Positions 25,372 through 55,707 of a stretch of 64,000 bases of DNA are shown here, in pieces; position 1 is the stretch's first letter, and each line of letters starts with the position of its first letter. The DNA is taken from positions 3,616,001 through 3,680,000 of the forward strand of contig CM000154.2 in the NCBI GenBank assembly GCA_000004695.1, in the 5' to 3' direction. This DNA is from Dictyostelium discoideum (taxonomy: Eukaryota). The notes below the pieces were generated by a model. It saw only the letters and a program-made list of their open reading frames with translations, did not search any database and was not told the DNA's origin. Made by a program: the position numbers and the translations under genes.

Positions 25372-26811
25372 TAACAAACATATGTCATTCTTTAAAAGTT
25401 TTTAAATAAAATTAAAAAAAAACCGTCATTAAATTATTCATTTAGAAAATTTCTGCAACTGTCCCAACAGAACCAGTCCTTGTTTTATTAAACTATTACC
25501 ATATATCTAATTCAATTATACATAGATTTTATTATCAAAAAAAAAAAAAAAAAAAAATCTTTTTTTATTTTTTTCACCCATTTACTTAAGTTGTAGTCAT
25601 ATTTTTTATTTATTTAATTTTAGTTTTATTATTTTTTCTAATAATTTTGAAGATTTTCCTCTTTTTATTTTTATTATTTATTTTCATCATTTAATAATAC
25701 TTGGTAAATATCAATATTATAGATTATTTCATTTGAAGCAACCATTTTCCAAACTCTAAAACCAAATTTTTTATTAAGGTAAATATTGAGCAGAAGCATT
25801 ATTGCACTGGAAAAAAAAATTCAAAACATAATATTATTTTGTAAATACTAATGATTTAATAATCATTTAATAATCATTTATTTATAATTTTAATATTAAA
25901 AAAATAATCCTGATAATAAAATTTTAATAAAAAAGAATTAATTAATATTTATTAGAAATTAATATTTATTAAAAATTAGTAAATAATTTTAATATATTAA
26001 AAAAAATAATTTTTTATTAATTTTTAATTGATTTTTTATATTCATAAAAGAGTTTAATAAATGAAAATTCGCAATAGATGAAGCCACATTGGAATTAATT
26101 GGTCTTTTACGAATATTTTTATTTAGTTGTCCTATGATATCATACCTTTACATAATGGCAATATTAATCTGTCAGGATTTTTACTAACTAAATTTGTGTT
26201 CATTGTTGTGCTAAAAAAGCCATATTATTTTTTCACCTAAATTTTTTTTTTTTTTTTTTTTTTTTATTTTCCTATATAAATTAAAGTTAACATATAATAA
26301 AAAAAGAGAATATCGAGTAGAAAAAAAAAAGAAAAAAAAAAAAGTTATAAATAAAAGAGAAATTAAGTGTAATAATTTATTAATTTAAGATAAAAGATTT
26401 TTCGATTATATTATATAAATATTATAATATTTATAAAGATTTTTCAATTATATAAAATAATAATTATATAATTTTATAACAAAAAAAAAATAAAAAAAAT
26501 CTTTTTTTTTTTTTTTTGTTTAACGAATTTTATTTGGTAGTTAATAATTAGTTTATAATCAAATAATTAAAATTTACTTACTTGGCGAAAAAAAATGGTG
26601 GGAAGATGGAATTACAAATCAGCATTAAAATCTCAAATTTACACTGAGTGATGGCGGCTGTATAAAATTAAAATAGTCATTTACTACCTCTAATATCAAT
26701 ATTAGAACAAAAAAAAAAAAAAAAAAATAAAATAAAATATTATAAAATAGAATAAAATAATTATGGAGGTGTTAAAATTTAGTCAAAAATGTCATCACAA
26801 GGATTTTTATT

Positions 26812-29107
26812 TTATATGTTTACTATTTTGACATTTACAGGGACGAAAGAATAAATTAATTTTTTACAACTTTTATAAATATAGACATTATTTAATGTAT
26901 TAGGAATTGAATCAATAATTAATTCTTGTTTTATATCACCTATATGTAACTCTTTAACCCATTCTGGTATTATACCTTTGGTTAATTTTTGATTGAATCC
27001 ATCTAATAACCTAACAGTTGTTACAGTATTAGGAATTGAATCGATTATTAGTTCTTGTTTTATATCATCTATATACAACTCTTTAACACTTTCTGGTATT
27101 ATACCTTTGGTTAATTTTTGATTGAATCCATCTAATAACCTAACAGTTGTTACAGTATTAGGAATTGAATCGATTATTAATTCTTGTTTTATATCACCTA
27201 AACATAACCCTTTAACCCATTCTGGTATTATACCTTTGGTTAATTTTTGATTGAATCCATCACATAAAATAACAGTTGTTACAGTATTAGGAATTGAATC
27301 AATTATTAATTCTTGTTTTATATCTCTTATATACAACTCTTTAACACCTTCTGGTATTATACCTTTGGTTAATTTTTGATTGAATCCATCACATAACCTA
27401 ACAGTTGTTACAGTATTAGGAATTGAATCAATAATTAATTCTTGTTTTAAATTACCTATATACAACTCTTTAACACCTTCTGGTATTATACCTTTGGTTA
27501 ATTTTTGATTGAATCCATCACATAAAGTAATAGTTGTTACAGTATTAGGAATTGAATCAATAATTAGTTCTTGTTTTATATTACCTATATGTAACTCTTT
27601 AACACTTTCTGGTATAATACCTTTGGTTAATTTTTGATTGAATCCATCTAATAACCTAACACGTGTTACAGTATTAGGAATTGAATCAATTATTAATTCT
27701 TGTTTTATATCACCTATATACAACACTTTAACACCTTCTGGTATTATACCTTTGGTTAATTTTTGATTGAATCCATCACATAAAATAACAGTTGTTAGAG
27801 TACTAGGAATTGAATCAATTATTAATTCTTGTTTTATATCACCTAAACGTAACTCTTTAACACCTTCTGGTATTATACCTTTGGTTAATTTTTGATTGAA
27901 TCCATACCATAAACCAACGGTTGTTACAGTATTAGGAATTGAATCAATTATTAATTCTTGTTTTATATCACCTATATACAACACTTTAACACCTTCTGGT
28001 ATTATACCTTTGGTTAATTTTTGATTGAATCCACTTAGAAGCAAAACGTTGTTTGGTAATTTCTTTAGTTTTGATAAAATGTTACAATTGTCTTTGAATG
28101 CTAAACTTTCAAAATCATCAGTCAAAAAGGATGATTCATCACTCTCTGAATATATATAAAAATTGTGATTCAATACTAAAAACAAAGAATTAGTATTTTT
28201 TGTTTTATTAGACTTATTAATTTGAGTCTAACTTACTTTTAATGAATTCATTTTTATTATTTGAGTTATTTAACTCATTATTATTATTATTATTATTATT
28301 ATTATTATTATTATTATTATTATTAATGTTATAATCAATAGCATCATTAGGAATATCACCAAAAGAGTATATCGATTTAAAACTATTTTTAATATTATTA
28401 ATTGTTTGATTATCGAATTTTAAGATTTGATTATTATATTCTTTTAGTTTTGTTAAATTATTGATATTATTGCTATTTTTTAATATTAATAATGAGTTTT
28501 GATATTGTTTAATTAATTCAATAGTATCTGTATCAATTTGATAGCAATCATCATTGTCGTCATTATCTTGTTGATTATTAATTTGTGTAAAATAATTTAA
28601 TTTATCAATAATTGAATTATTATTATTATTTAAAATTGTTGAAATGATTTTATTATCATTGTTGATTGAAGAAGTTATAATTGTATTTATCAATATATTT
28701 TGATCTAAGTTTGTTGATAGTTGTTTTTCGATATCCAATTCAACAAATGAAAGTATATTGTGAATTTGTTTAAATTCATTTTTTAATAAATTATTATTAT
28801 CATCATTTTGTGATTGAATTTCTTTGAAAGTTTCATTTGATTCTTTTAATAATATTTGATCATTTTCTTTTCTTTCAATTAATTTTGGATAGATATTATC
28901 TTTAAAATCATTAATTAATGAATGAATATTTGATGCTGATGATTCTAATGAATCAGTTTTATGACCATGATGTTCACCTTTACGAGACGTACAAAGACTG
29001 CAACATGGCATAAATTTACAATCCAAACATAAAAATTCTAAATTTTTATTTGGATGAAGTGTACACCTATTTTGATTATTTATAATTATATCTTCACTTT
29101 CTTTCAT
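26812..29107 (-). CDS. B-box zinc-finger / coiled-coil / FNIP-repeat protein (paralog A, intact); 2 exons
   Basis: complement(join(26812..28175, 28237..29107)). Exon 1: [51 protein letters not shown] (B-box-like C-x2-H...C-x2-C...H-x2-H), then helical and Asn-rich regions, ending at donor AAAA|GTAAGT. Acceptor ttttag|TATTGAAT (phase 1) leads into about eleven 39-aa FNIP repeats ([39 protein letters not shown]). The FYIY block after the splice is conserved among paralogs. Confidence 0.8.
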
Positions 29108-54241: not shown

Positions 54242-55707
54242 AATAAAAATCCTTGTGATGACATTTTTGACTAAATTTTAACACCTCCATAATTATTTTA
54301 TTCTATTTTATAATATTTTATTTTATTTATTTTTTTTTTTTTTTCTTCTAATATTGATATTAGAGGTAGTAAATGACTATTTTAATTTTATACAGCCGCC
54401 ATCACTCAGTTTAAATTTGAGATTTTACTGCTGATTTGTAATTCCATCTTCCCACCATTTTTTTTTGCCAAGTAAGTAAATTTTCATTATTTGATTGTAA
54501 ACTAATTATTAACTACCAATTAAAATTCGTTAAACAAAAATAAAAGATTTTTTTTTTTATTTTTTTATTTTTTTTTTTTTCTAATTGATATTCTCTTTTT
54601 TTATTATATGTTAACTTTAATTTATATAAAAAAAAAAATATAAAAAAATTTAGGTGAAAAAATAATATGGCTTTTTTAGCACAACAATGAACATAAATTT
54701 AGTTAGTAAAAATCCTGACAGATTAATATTGCCATTATGTTAAGGTATGATATTATATGACAATTAAATAAAAATAGCTTTAATATTAATTAATTTCTTT
54801 TTTAAAAATTTAATAGACGTCAATTGATTTTCAAGACCAGAGAAATCCAATGTAAAAATTGTTAGCTCTTAAGATGATTCCAATCGAAAATAATTCCATA
54901 AAGCGTTAATCAAGTTAAATAAAATAATAATAATAATAATAATAATAATAATAATAATAATAATAATAATAATAATAATAATAAAATGAGCCATATTAAT
55001 TTCATCATGCATATACCACCTGTTTTTGGGATGAAATTAATATGGCTCAGAATCGTGAAAAAAAAAAAATTCAATAATCATCAAATATAAAATCAAGGAA
55101 TTAATAATAATAAAAAATTCATGAGATTAATAAGAATAATAATAATAAATAAAATTGATGTAACAAAAGTAAAAAAAAAAAAAAAAAAAAAAAAAAAAAA
55201 AAAAAAAAAAAAAAAAAAAAAAATCTTTTTTATTTTTAAGTTGTAAAATTTATAATATATTATATTATATTATATAATTGAATATAAATTAAACCCTCTT
55301 TTGAAAGATTGTGGAAAAAAAAAAAAAATTTTAAGATTATTTCATTTAGTTATCCCTTTTTCCCACCAAAAAACCCTCACATAATTTTTTTTATTTAATT
55401 TGGGTTGTATTATTTAAAAAAAAAAAAAAATTATTTAAAATAAAAAAAAAAATTATTTAAAATAAAAAAAAAAATTGTAAATTAAAAAATATGAAAAAAA
55501 AAAAATAAAAAAAAAACAATTATTTTTACCCCATTTTTTTTTAAGATATTTTGATTTTTTGATTTTTTTTCAATTAGATATTTTTTTTTTAATTTTCATT
55601 TTTTTATAATTTTTTTTTAAAATTTTAAAAATAATAATATTAACAAACTAAAATAGTATTAATAAAGGTTATACATTGTAATAAAAAAATAAAATAAAAA
55701 AATTAAA

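Follow-up and report, generated by a model that had tools for sequence, protein, structure and literature searches.

How two almost identical B-box/FNIP genes came to face each other across a block of housekeeping genes is the question raised by this part of the Dictyostelium discoideum AX4 chromosome 5 reference. The window analysed here is a 64,000-nucleotide stretch of that reference, and the B-box/FNIP copies within it are designated A to F. Its sigG, 4HBT and Fe-ADH sequences are identical to those of AX4. The initial annotation read the locus as an inverted duplication of a pseudogene plus a gene, with A and D near-identical through recent duplication or ongoing gene conversion; taken as a model, this is an old duplication in which A and D were kept alike by conversion while B and C drifted apart. 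We think it likely instead that the region is a birth-and-death B-box/FNIP cluster in which D is a recent ~3.3-kb copy into the 3' end of C, made in the AX4/NC4 lineage. The A/D arrangement would then be an ordinary dispersed duplication and not an ancient paired one.

The inverted repeat itself is real. A repeat search of the window placed its arms at 26478-29210 and 51843-54575 (2733 nt, 95% identity, opposite orientation), and a Megablast comparison of the window with itself aligned 26481-29348 with 54570-51726 at 94.8% identity over 2871 nt (122 mismatches and 14 gaps), which is far above chance for two opposite-orientation copies on the same molecule. Homology is lost beyond ~26105 on the left and ~54780 on the right, and the outer limits first given for the region are therefore the observed ends of homology. 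The arms were described as 4.7 and 6.1 kb long; however, the truly copied arm is only ~3.2-3.3 kb, and only 26105-29348 and 51497-54780 are mutual copies. The extra length of the right arm is due to a retroelement fragment inside C. Arm-to-arm homology halts at the tail of a B-type gene, leaving the N-terminal parts of B and C outside it, and each arm has its own unique flanks. The left high-identity unit (26105-29348, minus strand) comprises the 3' flank, gene A and 240 nt of upstream sequence, and matches 51726-54780 on the opposite strand with 98-100% identity outside the FNIP array. The inverted copies lie 22.4 kb apart, share ~99% identity over 1.3 kb and have a longest perfect run of 365 nt.

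Gene A (26812-29107, minus strand) consists of exon 1 (28237-29107), an intron (28176-28236) and exon 2 (26812-28175), with an FNIP array of 9 x 129 nt at 26872-28032. Gene D (51946-54241, plus strand) is built in the same way, with exon 1 at 51946-52816, an intron at 52817-52877, exon 2 at 52878-54241 and the FNIP array at 53021-54181. As annotated, both genes are intact and splice cleanly, each yielding 744 aa on removal of a 61-nt intron, with no indels between them; gene A is also called as 744 aa in a second assembly (ACTFIT). The gene A product matches the Pfam B-box (PF00643) with 29.5 bits against a gathering cutoff of 24.1, and FNIP (PF05725) with 350 bits in nine stretches. Identity between the A and D coding sequences, previously put at ~97%, is 95.1% for nucleotides and 90.1% for amino acids; it is ~99% (98-100%) outside the FNIP array and ~91% (85-94%) inside. 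The description of A and D as a young inverted duplicate pair is upheld. When full-length A or its N-terminal part alone was used in protein searches, the best matches had 54-62% identity, and neither A and D themselves nor any clear orthologue was among them.

One alternative, already raised in the initial annotation, is that the pair was created by the assembly, either through collapse or mis-orientation of a tandem array or through doubling of a single locus by the assembler. FNIP arrays are difficult to assemble, and the reference spacer does contain a 100-N gap (38897-38996). This gap, however, falls inside one gene whose parts on either side are collinear, the 122 mismatches and 14 gaps separate arms with unique flanks, and other strains also have an A-type gene (-) at the left and C (+) at the right. 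In the ACTFIT assembly (GCA_054883475.1), A(-) and D(+) lie ~22.5 kb apart in the same orientation as in AX4 (loci L006 and L001), with 0-1 differences from AX4 in the retrieved arm parts, the one difference being a homopolymer indel. This comparison covers B up to 29900 and the locus on either side of its middle 15 kb, and the differences between the arms recur wherever the arms were retrieved. GCA_054883475.1 was probably assembled de novo from long reads; strains of this kind are the subject of a Nanopore/Flye study, in which the accession is not listed. Based on these results, an assembly artefact is extremely unlikely.

A frameshifted relative does lie on the spacer side of each intact gene, as the initial annotation had it, and the N-terminal domains of both B and C are scattered over three reading frames. 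B (29349-30754, minus strand) is a decayed tandem paralogue of A with at least two frameshifts (frames -1/-3/-2), a shortened FNIP array and a ~240-nt 3' deletion, defined relative to a chromosome-2 copy, B'. C (48663-51726, plus strand) begins with a frameshifted N-terminal B-box part (48663-49822; frames +3/+1/+2) and is interrupted on the same strand at 49823-50905 by what is probably the 3' end of a non-LTR retroelement (zf-RVT match, E-value ~6e-4, below the Pfam cutoff). Its own residual FNIP array follows at 50906-51496 and runs on into the B-type tail, with a 100% match to residues 267-494 of the AX4 model DDB_G0290101, of which the retroelement fragment is also part. ACTFIY carries a longer insert at the same site, and the fragment is absent from the C orthologues of ACTFIR and ACTFIW.

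B and C had been taken for a duplicated pair of roughly 80% identity; the measured value is 74-77%. In the unique 5' part of the genes, identities are 0.990 for A-D, 0.985 for A-A', 0.983 for D-A', 0.965 for B-B', 0.81 for B-A, 0.74-0.77 for B-C and 0.73 for C-A, where A' is a chromosome-2 counterpart of A. B is thus closer to A/D (80%) than to C and closest to B' (96.5%), while C is equally distant from all other copies. These sequence relationships indicate that B and C are not sister copies. The chromosome-2 locus (L005, 9514-14243) matches window positions 31243-25604 with 92-96% identity, and it spans both B and A and extends past the A/D homology on both sides. It therefore holds a third near-identical pair, B'-A', and B' (DDB_G0275727, on the 8.48-Mb chromosome) is the true duplicate of B.

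The counterpart of C is found instead in other strains. In ACTFIR (L007) and ACTFIW (L009), one intact FNIP gene (495 and 449 aa, respectively) lies between the TM gene and the Fe-ADH gene, and the N-terminal part of C is orthologous to it. The right-side FNIP gene of ACTFIR shows 85% identity with C and 76% with A/D; C in turn is 85% identical to ACTFIR R1 but only 73% identical to A/D, and there is an exon-2 motif in common between C and its orthologue. By sequence, then, C has long been resident at this site, where ACTFIR and ACTFIW have it intact and AX4 has it dead, and the D unit is absent from the C locus in both of these strains. At the left end, ACTFIR has a 720-aa gene at the position and on the strand of A, with an A-like C-terminus as seen in the last 72 nt and the flank; the strain comparison takes in the left arm of strains other than ACTFIW and ACTFIY. 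The D. purpureum GDPD locus has no synteny with the AX4 region and hence supplies no outgroup. Judged by tag spacing, ACTFIZ_011881 and ACTFIZ_011894 were a candidate orthologous locus but belong to a different B-box/FNIP/DUF4419 cluster; locus-tag spacing was an unreliable guide to gene order.

These comparisons bear directly on the model of an old inverted duplication. The order is indeed mirrored, with a decayed copy upstream of an intact copy on each arm, and a mosaic of informative sites (described below) does point to some exchange among A-type copies. Four observations nevertheless make this model very unlikely: B is nearer to A/D than to C, the real twin of B is on chromosome 2, C is intact and D missing in ACTFIR and ACTFIW, and the arm homology ends before the N-terminal parts of B and C are reached. 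We regard C (frameshifts, retroelement fragment and lost tail) and B (frameshifts and deletion) as independent casualties of turnover and not as copies of each other.

Both junctions of the D-unit, a lineage-specific insertion of ~3.3 kb (51497-54780, plus strand), can be read in AX4. The unit consists of a B-type tail (51497-51725), 220 nt of upstream sequence, gene D and its 3' flank. Its left junction (~51500) lies within the FNIP array of C, and from this point the tail of C is near-identical to that of B' on chromosome 2 (168/173 nt). The right junction is a 345-nt filler (54781-55125) that includes an (AAT)n tract (54923-54982) and a perfect hairpin of 19 bp (54988-55006/55030-55048), and the ancestral 3' flank of C restarts at ~55125. 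Among the fetched loci, no homologue of the filler was found except the ACTFIT copy and a weak hairpin-like match in L009 (ACTFIW). Neither a target-site duplication nor terminal repeats were seen at the ends of the D-unit. A transposon-borne duplication was considered and rejected, as FNIP homology marks the left end and filler the right, and no target-site duplication accompanies them.

The same junctions speak to a reverse history in which an ancestral D was lost by deletion from ACTFIR and ACTFIW; unequal recombination of the FNIP array of C with that of D could be one route. As direct repeats with arrays ~90% identical, C and D would be good deletion substrates. Such a crossover, however, would leave the D C-terminal cap (...VNI) and the D 3' flank behind, and the ACTFIR and ACTFIW genes have neither; they stop partway through an FNIP unit and are followed at once by the (AAT)n/AAATAAAATTGATG flank that sits 345 nt past the D-unit in AX4. 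The fused ACTFIY gene model is also without D. Deletion is accordingly an improbable account of the strain difference.

The history that we favour, a recent copy into C, would have begun from an ancestral state, kept in ACTFIR and ACTFIW, in which the housekeeping block was flanked by a single family gene on either side: at the left, adjoining the GDPD gene, a minus-strand A-type gene, and at the right, adjoining the Fe-ADH gene, the plus-strand C. In the AX4/NC4 lineage, a ~3.3-kb segment running from a B-type gene tail through the intergenic stretch and an A-type gene to ~540 nt of 3' flank would then have been copied into the 3' end of C to give D. The donor was presumably a [B-A] pair, on the left arm or, as the twin pair B'-A', on chromosome 2. 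The copy would have entered through FNIP-repeat homology at ~51500 in the array of C and ended non-homologously at 54780 with the 345-nt filler. A homologous left end combined with a non-homologous right end is the pattern expected of break repair or template switching with an ectopic paralogue, and one of these processes may have been responsible. The inverted orientation of A and D follows from the fact that A and C already faced each other.

Within the copied segment, the FNIP arrays behave differently from their surroundings. A and D have nine units each, with no unit-by-unit orthology except for the last unit, and units D0, D2, D4 and A5 are nearly alike. Reshuffling of the 129-nt units after the duplication, by exchange within and between the arrays of A and D, would explain why the arrays are only ~91% identical when the flanks are ~99% identical. 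Exon 1 of A, D and A' has 4-5 private changes in each copy, a near-trichotomy, and in a three-way comparison the informative sites of A, D and A' are a mosaic (54:63:41), which makes sequence exchange between copies, in line with the gene conversion suggested in the initial annotation, plausible.

Could the likeness of A, D and A' therefore be owed chiefly to non-allelic gene conversion (concerted evolution) that continues among older copies, and not to a recent copying event? The mosaic is what such a process would leave. In addition, the A-type region is 1.5% diverged between the chromosomes (A-A') in comparison to 3.5% for the adjacent B-B', or 3.5-6% when the outer flanks are included, and the distant paralogue E, with N-terminal domains only ~70% identical to those of A and D, has FNIP units that are ~91% identical to theirs. 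On the other hand, D is physically missing in two strains, so that its origin at least was an insertion, and the sharp ends of the high-identity tract coincide with the insertion junctions. Continuing conversion as the main cause is possible but on balance doubtful. Because B-B' looks older than A-A', later conversion among A-type copies may nonetheless have added to the similarity left by one recent event.

Selection on the B-box/FNIP copies is only suggested by these sequences. Exon 1 of A and D differs by nine non-synonymous and no synonymous changes (p ~0.19 under neutrality), and pN/pS for the A and D arrays is 1.31. At ten hypervariable positions, picked by their own variability, pN/pS is 3.4, as against 0.24 elsewhere.

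The spacer (30755-48662) carries genes for Snf7/CHMP2, MCD, PITP, rpl22, a ZNF207-like protein, elp3, two tRNA-Val and a TM protein. Snf7/CHMP2, MCD, PITP and elp3 are supported by Pfam, and rpl22 is confirmed as L22e. The spacer is not entirely single-copy, as the tRNA-Val genes, of which the initial annotation counted one, lie within a 1.4-kb tandem duplication. The ZNF207-like gene has a sub-threshold Pfam zinc-finger match only, the TM protein has no Pfam match, and an Rfam scan of the window returned no matches, the two tRNAs included. Inversion of the spacer, which the initial annotation saw as favoured by the arms, is possible in principle, the longest perfect run between the arms being 365 nt, and in laboratory strains the A/D pair could act as substrate for a 22-kb inversion. 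The observed orientation, however, is the ancestral one, as it matches that of strains without D: ACTFIW likewise has elp3(+), TM(-), C(+) and Fe-ADH(+) in this order, and gene order and strands at the retrieved spacer edges are equal in AX4, ACTFIT, ACTFIR and ACTFIW. No spacer inversion was seen among these four partially examined genomes.

Two further family members lie beyond the range of the initial annotation. E (59019-61951, plus strand) has 13-14 FNIP units, is in the same orientation as C and D and is annotated as 952 aa in ACTFIT. F starts at approximately 63131 on the plus strand and runs off the window at 64000; it is called as 508 aa in ACTFIT. The segment containing E and F is absent from ACTFIR and ACTFIW. 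The AX4 laboratory lineage thus holds D, E and F, all missing from two other D. discoideum strains, which matters wherever AX4 gene content is taken as "the" species repertoire.

As a structural feature, the A/D pair is of modest value, being a young dispersed duplication of an ordinary kind within a gene-family cluster. Its interest is that both junctions of a lineage-specific gene gain, one repeat-homologous and the other non-homologous, are readable at base level, and that the FNIP arrays reorganise much faster than their flanks change. Like the low-copy inverted repeats that undergo NAHR, A and D are in opposite orientation on one chromosome, 22.4 kb apart and with a 365-nt perfect run, and a crossover between them would invert the block of B, spacer and C. 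Unlike in such systems, no inversion is seen here and the arms are short (3.3 kb).

A second comparison is with birth-and-death multigene families whose copy content is strain-specific, such as the Dictyostelium tgr family (bioRxiv 10.1101/2025.10.22.684067). The likeness is that intact and decayed copies are adjacent, D, E and F are strain-variable, and B-box/FNIP copies have moved between loci and chromosomes and have mosaic sequences. A difference is that, to our knowledge, no recognition function is known for B-box/FNIP proteins; a literature search on the related AX4 genes DDB_G0290101, DDB_G0275727, DDB_G0289849 and DDB_G0290679 found no paper naming any of the four.

A third comparison is with FGxxFN/FNIP LRR proteins (PF05725) such as Crov588 and Crov539 (PMC9525666). 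The FNIP domain of A matches the Crov588 LRR (6NYR) with an E-value of 2.9e-87, and the variable residues fall at the x positions of the LxxLxhxx strand and at positions corresponding to 8-9, which are named in that study as the variable edge of the concave face (PMC9525666). A and D differ from Crov588 and Crov539 in having an N-terminal B-box and a repeat that is a 43-aa double unit. It is conceivable, although we consider it rather unlikely, that the B-box/FNIP genes form a family of receptor-like LRR proteins in which a TRIM-like B-box makes up the head and the LRR the tail. On this reading, 129-nt units would be shuffled rapidly among paralogues in cis, in inverted orientation and on different chromosomes, which would diversify the putative ligand face, and this locus would be a strain-specific hot spot. 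The inverted A/D pair would then capture one moment in the working of a repertoire-generating mechanism that serves pathogen or non-self recognition.

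The inverted repeat proposed in the initial annotation is present in the window: a repeat search returned arms at 26478-29210 and 51843-54575 (2733 nt, 95% identity), and Megablast aligned 26481-29348 with 54570-51726 at 94.8% identity over 2871 nt. In a global alignment of the arms, homology fades at about 26105 and 54780, in agreement with the outer limits first suggested (26105 and 54775). The two intact 744-aa B-box/FNIP genes (FNIP being an FGxxFN-type LRR repeat) were likewise recovered. Gene A in the left arm (26812-29107, minus strand) and gene D in the right arm (51946-54241, plus strand) each encode 744 aa when spliced over a 61-nt GT..AG intron, and the two genes align without indels. 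Pfam analysis of A identified a B-box and nine FNIP stretches, and its repeat domain matches Crov588, a solved FGxxFN LRR protein (E-value: 2.9e-87). The structure is real, and it is a young dispersed duplicate (approximately 3.3 kb) that entered a neighbouring paralogue in inverse orientation, in a B-box/FNIP birth-and-death cluster whose content varies among strains. An ancient paired inverted duplication is rejected as an account of it.

Searching with A (tblastn) located four further family members: B (29348-30754, minus strand), C (48663-51726, plus strand), E (59019-61951, plus strand) and F (from about 63131, plus strand). In both B and C, the N-terminal domain is scattered over three reading frames; the two are therefore decayed, as their earlier description as pseudogenes held. 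The arms had also been read as copies that each carry one gene and one pseudogene. In the unique 5' region, comprising upstream sequence, exon 1, the intron and exon 2 up to the array, identity is 0.990 for A-D, 0.80-0.81 for A-B, 0.74-0.77 for B-C, 0.73-0.74 for A-C and about 0.70 for E with all others. Based on these values, B has nearer relatives in A and D than in C, and the distances of C to the rest are about equal, which is not what duplication of a pseudogene-gene pair predicts. The B-C values are also lower than the roughly 80% initially estimated. Similarly, A and D, put at about 97% identity, share 95.1% of nucleotides and 90.1% of amino acids over the CDS. Their identity is uneven, at 98-100% in the 3' flank, exon 1, intron and upstream 240 nt and 85-94% in the FNIP array. 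Exon 1 contains nine non-synonymous and no synonymous differences and the array pN/pS is 1.31; thus purifying selection since duplication is not apparent, and the excess is not significant either.

Most of the gene list given for the spacer between B and C stands. Snf7 (CHMP2), MCD, PITP and Elp3 are supported by Pfam and L22e by direct reading, while the ZNF207-like gene has only a sub-threshold zinc-finger match and the transmembrane (TM) protein has no Pfam match. There are two tRNA-Val(UAC) genes (42886-42961 and 44286-44361) rather than one, each in one copy of an approximately 1.4 kb tandem duplication (42678-43194 and 44079-44602, 80-87% identical). An Rfam scan of the window at gathering thresholds gave zero matches, these two genes included. 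A 100-N assembly gap (38897-38996) interrupts the ZNF207-like gene (minus strand, ORF 38846-39670), whose reading frame continues on either side and whose two sides are collinear. Window GC is 17-35% and the gene content is dictyostelid, with exact D. discoideum AX4 protein matches for sigG (DDB_G0290071, 16186-17463), a 4HBT thioesterase and Fe-ADH (EAL62385), the gene 3' of D. With the gap and a 100% match to part of DDB_G0290101, the window is accordingly taken as the AX4 chromosome 5 reference or a sequence that cannot be told from it.

Cluster members of the flanking genes led to two more D. discoideum assemblies, ACTFIR and ACTFIW. On the right side, both have one intact FNIP gene (495 and 449 aa, respectively) on the plus strand between the TM-protein gene and Fe-ADH, and D is absent from this locus in both. 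At 85% identity to C against 76% to A and D, and sharing a distinctive 29-residue stretch from the start of C exon 2, the ACTFIR gene is the C orthologue. A fused gene model in a further strain, ACTFIY, runs from C-type FNIP sequence through an insert into Fe-ADH, and D was not seen in it. On the left side, ACTFIR encodes a 720-aa protein at the position and on the strand of A, and its last 23 residues and 3' flank align to A. From both sides of this strain comparison, an A-type gene on the left facing C on the right is the older arrangement. Judged from these sequences, D is an addition of the AX4 lineage. Loss of D from the other strains by crossover between the C and D arrays is unlikely, as the ACTFIR and ACTFIW genes have neither the C-terminal cap nor the 3' flank of D.

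Other content differs among these strains. The segment containing E and F (approximately 8.6 kb; window ~57460-64000, ACTFIT locus L001 11790-20425) is absent from ACTFIR and ACTFIW, where approximately 1.2 kb with a different zinc-finger/FNIP gene (277-283 aa) precedes the GARS-AIRS gene. About 110 nt at 55280-55390 occur in AX4 and ACTFIT and are lacking where the sequence upstream of Fe-ADH in ACTFIR and ACTFIW is aligned. Upstream of the ACTFIR TM-protein gene, at the place of the AX4 tRNA-Val region, is an LTR-retrotransposon integrase/chromodomain ORF (L007 108-1460). ACTFIR has 62 kb between 4HBT and Fe-ADH, and AX4 has 40 kb.

In AX4, C is interrupted at 49823-50905 by a fragment that matches zf-RVT weakly and probably represents the 3' terminus of a non-LTR retroelement. 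This 1.1-kb insert is absent from ACTFIR and ACTFIW; the ACTFIY insert, at the same site, is longer and RT-bearing. The AX4 model DDB_G0290101 includes the translated fragment, and its residues 267-494 match 50918-51601 at 100%. In the cryptic-species strain ACTFIZ, a separate cluster (JBTAPI010000034.1; L002 and L003) mixes B-box/FNIP with DUF4419 genes, and its P0024 terminates in the retroelement-derived sequence also found within C (79-89% to window 50068-50600).

The D-unit (51497-54780) has two dissimilar ends. At the left junction, from about 51500, the C tail departs from C's own array and becomes near-identical (168/173 nt) to the tail of B', the chromosome 2 copy of B. This tail (the last roughly 130 nt of CDS and about 100 nt of 3' UTR) directly abuts the D upstream sequence; the left-arm B lacks it through a deletion of about 240 nt. 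At the right junction, homology with A and with A', its chromosome 2 copy, ends at 54780, and at about 55125 the sequence returns to the ancestral C 3' flank known from ACTFIR and ACTFIW. The 345-nt filler between them (54781-55125) contains (AAT)20 at 54923-54982 and a 19-bp perfect hairpin (54988-55006/55030-55048). Apart from a weakly similar hairpin sequence at L009 3391-3444 (ACTFIW), nothing homologous to it was seen in the rest of the window or the other loci retrieved. Because one end lies in repeat homology and the other is non-homologous with filler, the pattern expected of such repair, we predict that a break in the FNIP array of C would have been repaired from an ectopic paralogue template. 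Neither terminal repeats nor a target-site duplication, features that would point to a transposon, were found at the D-unit ends.

A protein search identified ACTFIT_004035, 93-94% identical to B but on a separate 4.89-Mb contig; the AX4 member of its cluster, DDB_G0275727, lies on chromosome 2 (8.48 Mb). ACTFIT JBTAPE010000033.1 (L005) 9514-14243 aligns with window 31243-25604 at 92-96%, covering the whole B'-A' pair and its flanks and extending ~500 nt past the outer end of A/D homology and ~460 nt past B. The array of A' is shorter (663-aa protein). Pairwise identities among A, D and A' are nearly equal (0.983-0.990; B-B' 0.965), each of these copies has 4-5 private amino-acid changes in exon 1, and three-way informative sites over the whole shared unit (54 A+D, 63 A+A', 41 D+A') form a mosaic rather than a tree. 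The AX4 A 3' flank (25604-26660) is common to the chromosome 2 copy yet missing from ACTFIR; exchange with chromosome 2 may thus have affected the left arm itself.

An assembly error, the alternative initially raised, can be dismissed: the arms differ by 122 mismatches and 14 gaps, each has a unique outer flank, and both are reproduced in a second assembly, GCA_054883475.1 (ACTFIT), at L006 (window 8248-29900) and L001 (window 45674-64000). There, A lies at CM142511.1 3,732,721-3,735,016 (minus strand) and D at 3,757,485-3,759,780 (plus strand). The loci are 99.6-99.7% identical to the window, differing almost entirely in low-complexity intergenic DNA, with one homopolymer indel across 26100-29900 (A and part of B) and none across 48600-54800 (C and D). 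ACTFIT is likely an independent assembly; a Nanopore/Flye study of such strains exists, which does not list this accession. The arms had further been said to favour inversion of the spacer. With a longest perfect run of 365 nt and ~99% identity across 1.3 kb, recombination between them could occur. However, ACTFIW, in which D is missing, matches AX4 in the order and strands of Elp3(+), TM(-), C(+) and Fe-ADH(+); the AX4 spacer is therefore in the ancestral orientation, and no inversion was seen among the retrieved loci (for ACTFIT, those matching window 8248-29900 and 45674-64000).

Events of this type are already well known, and the modest interest lies in this case, its junctions and its fast array turnover. 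Units were compared over 26872-28032, 53021-54181 and 60071-61951. The arrays of A and D both consist of nine units of 43 aa (129 nt), of which the last alone is orthologous (two differences). The other eight in-register pairs differ at 8-18 of 129 nt, the level found between any two units. Some out-of-register pairs are near-identical: a single nucleotide separates A5 from D0 and likewise from D4, and D0, D2 and D4 are mutually close. Units of the distant paralogue E share ~91% identity with A and D units, compared with ~70% for the N-terminal domains. Homogenization and reshuffling of the arrays therefore outpace point mutation in their flanks. At ten variable unit positions (14, 17, 19-23, 40, 42 and 43) pN/pS is 3.4, compared with 0.24 elsewhere; since these positions were picked by their variability, which is circular, the difference is only suggestive. 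The ten FNIP positions match the LxxLxhxx strand at its x positions, together with positions 8-9, identified in the structural study of Crov588/Crov539 as the concave face's variable edge (PMC9525666), and are predicted to lie on the concave face and its edge.
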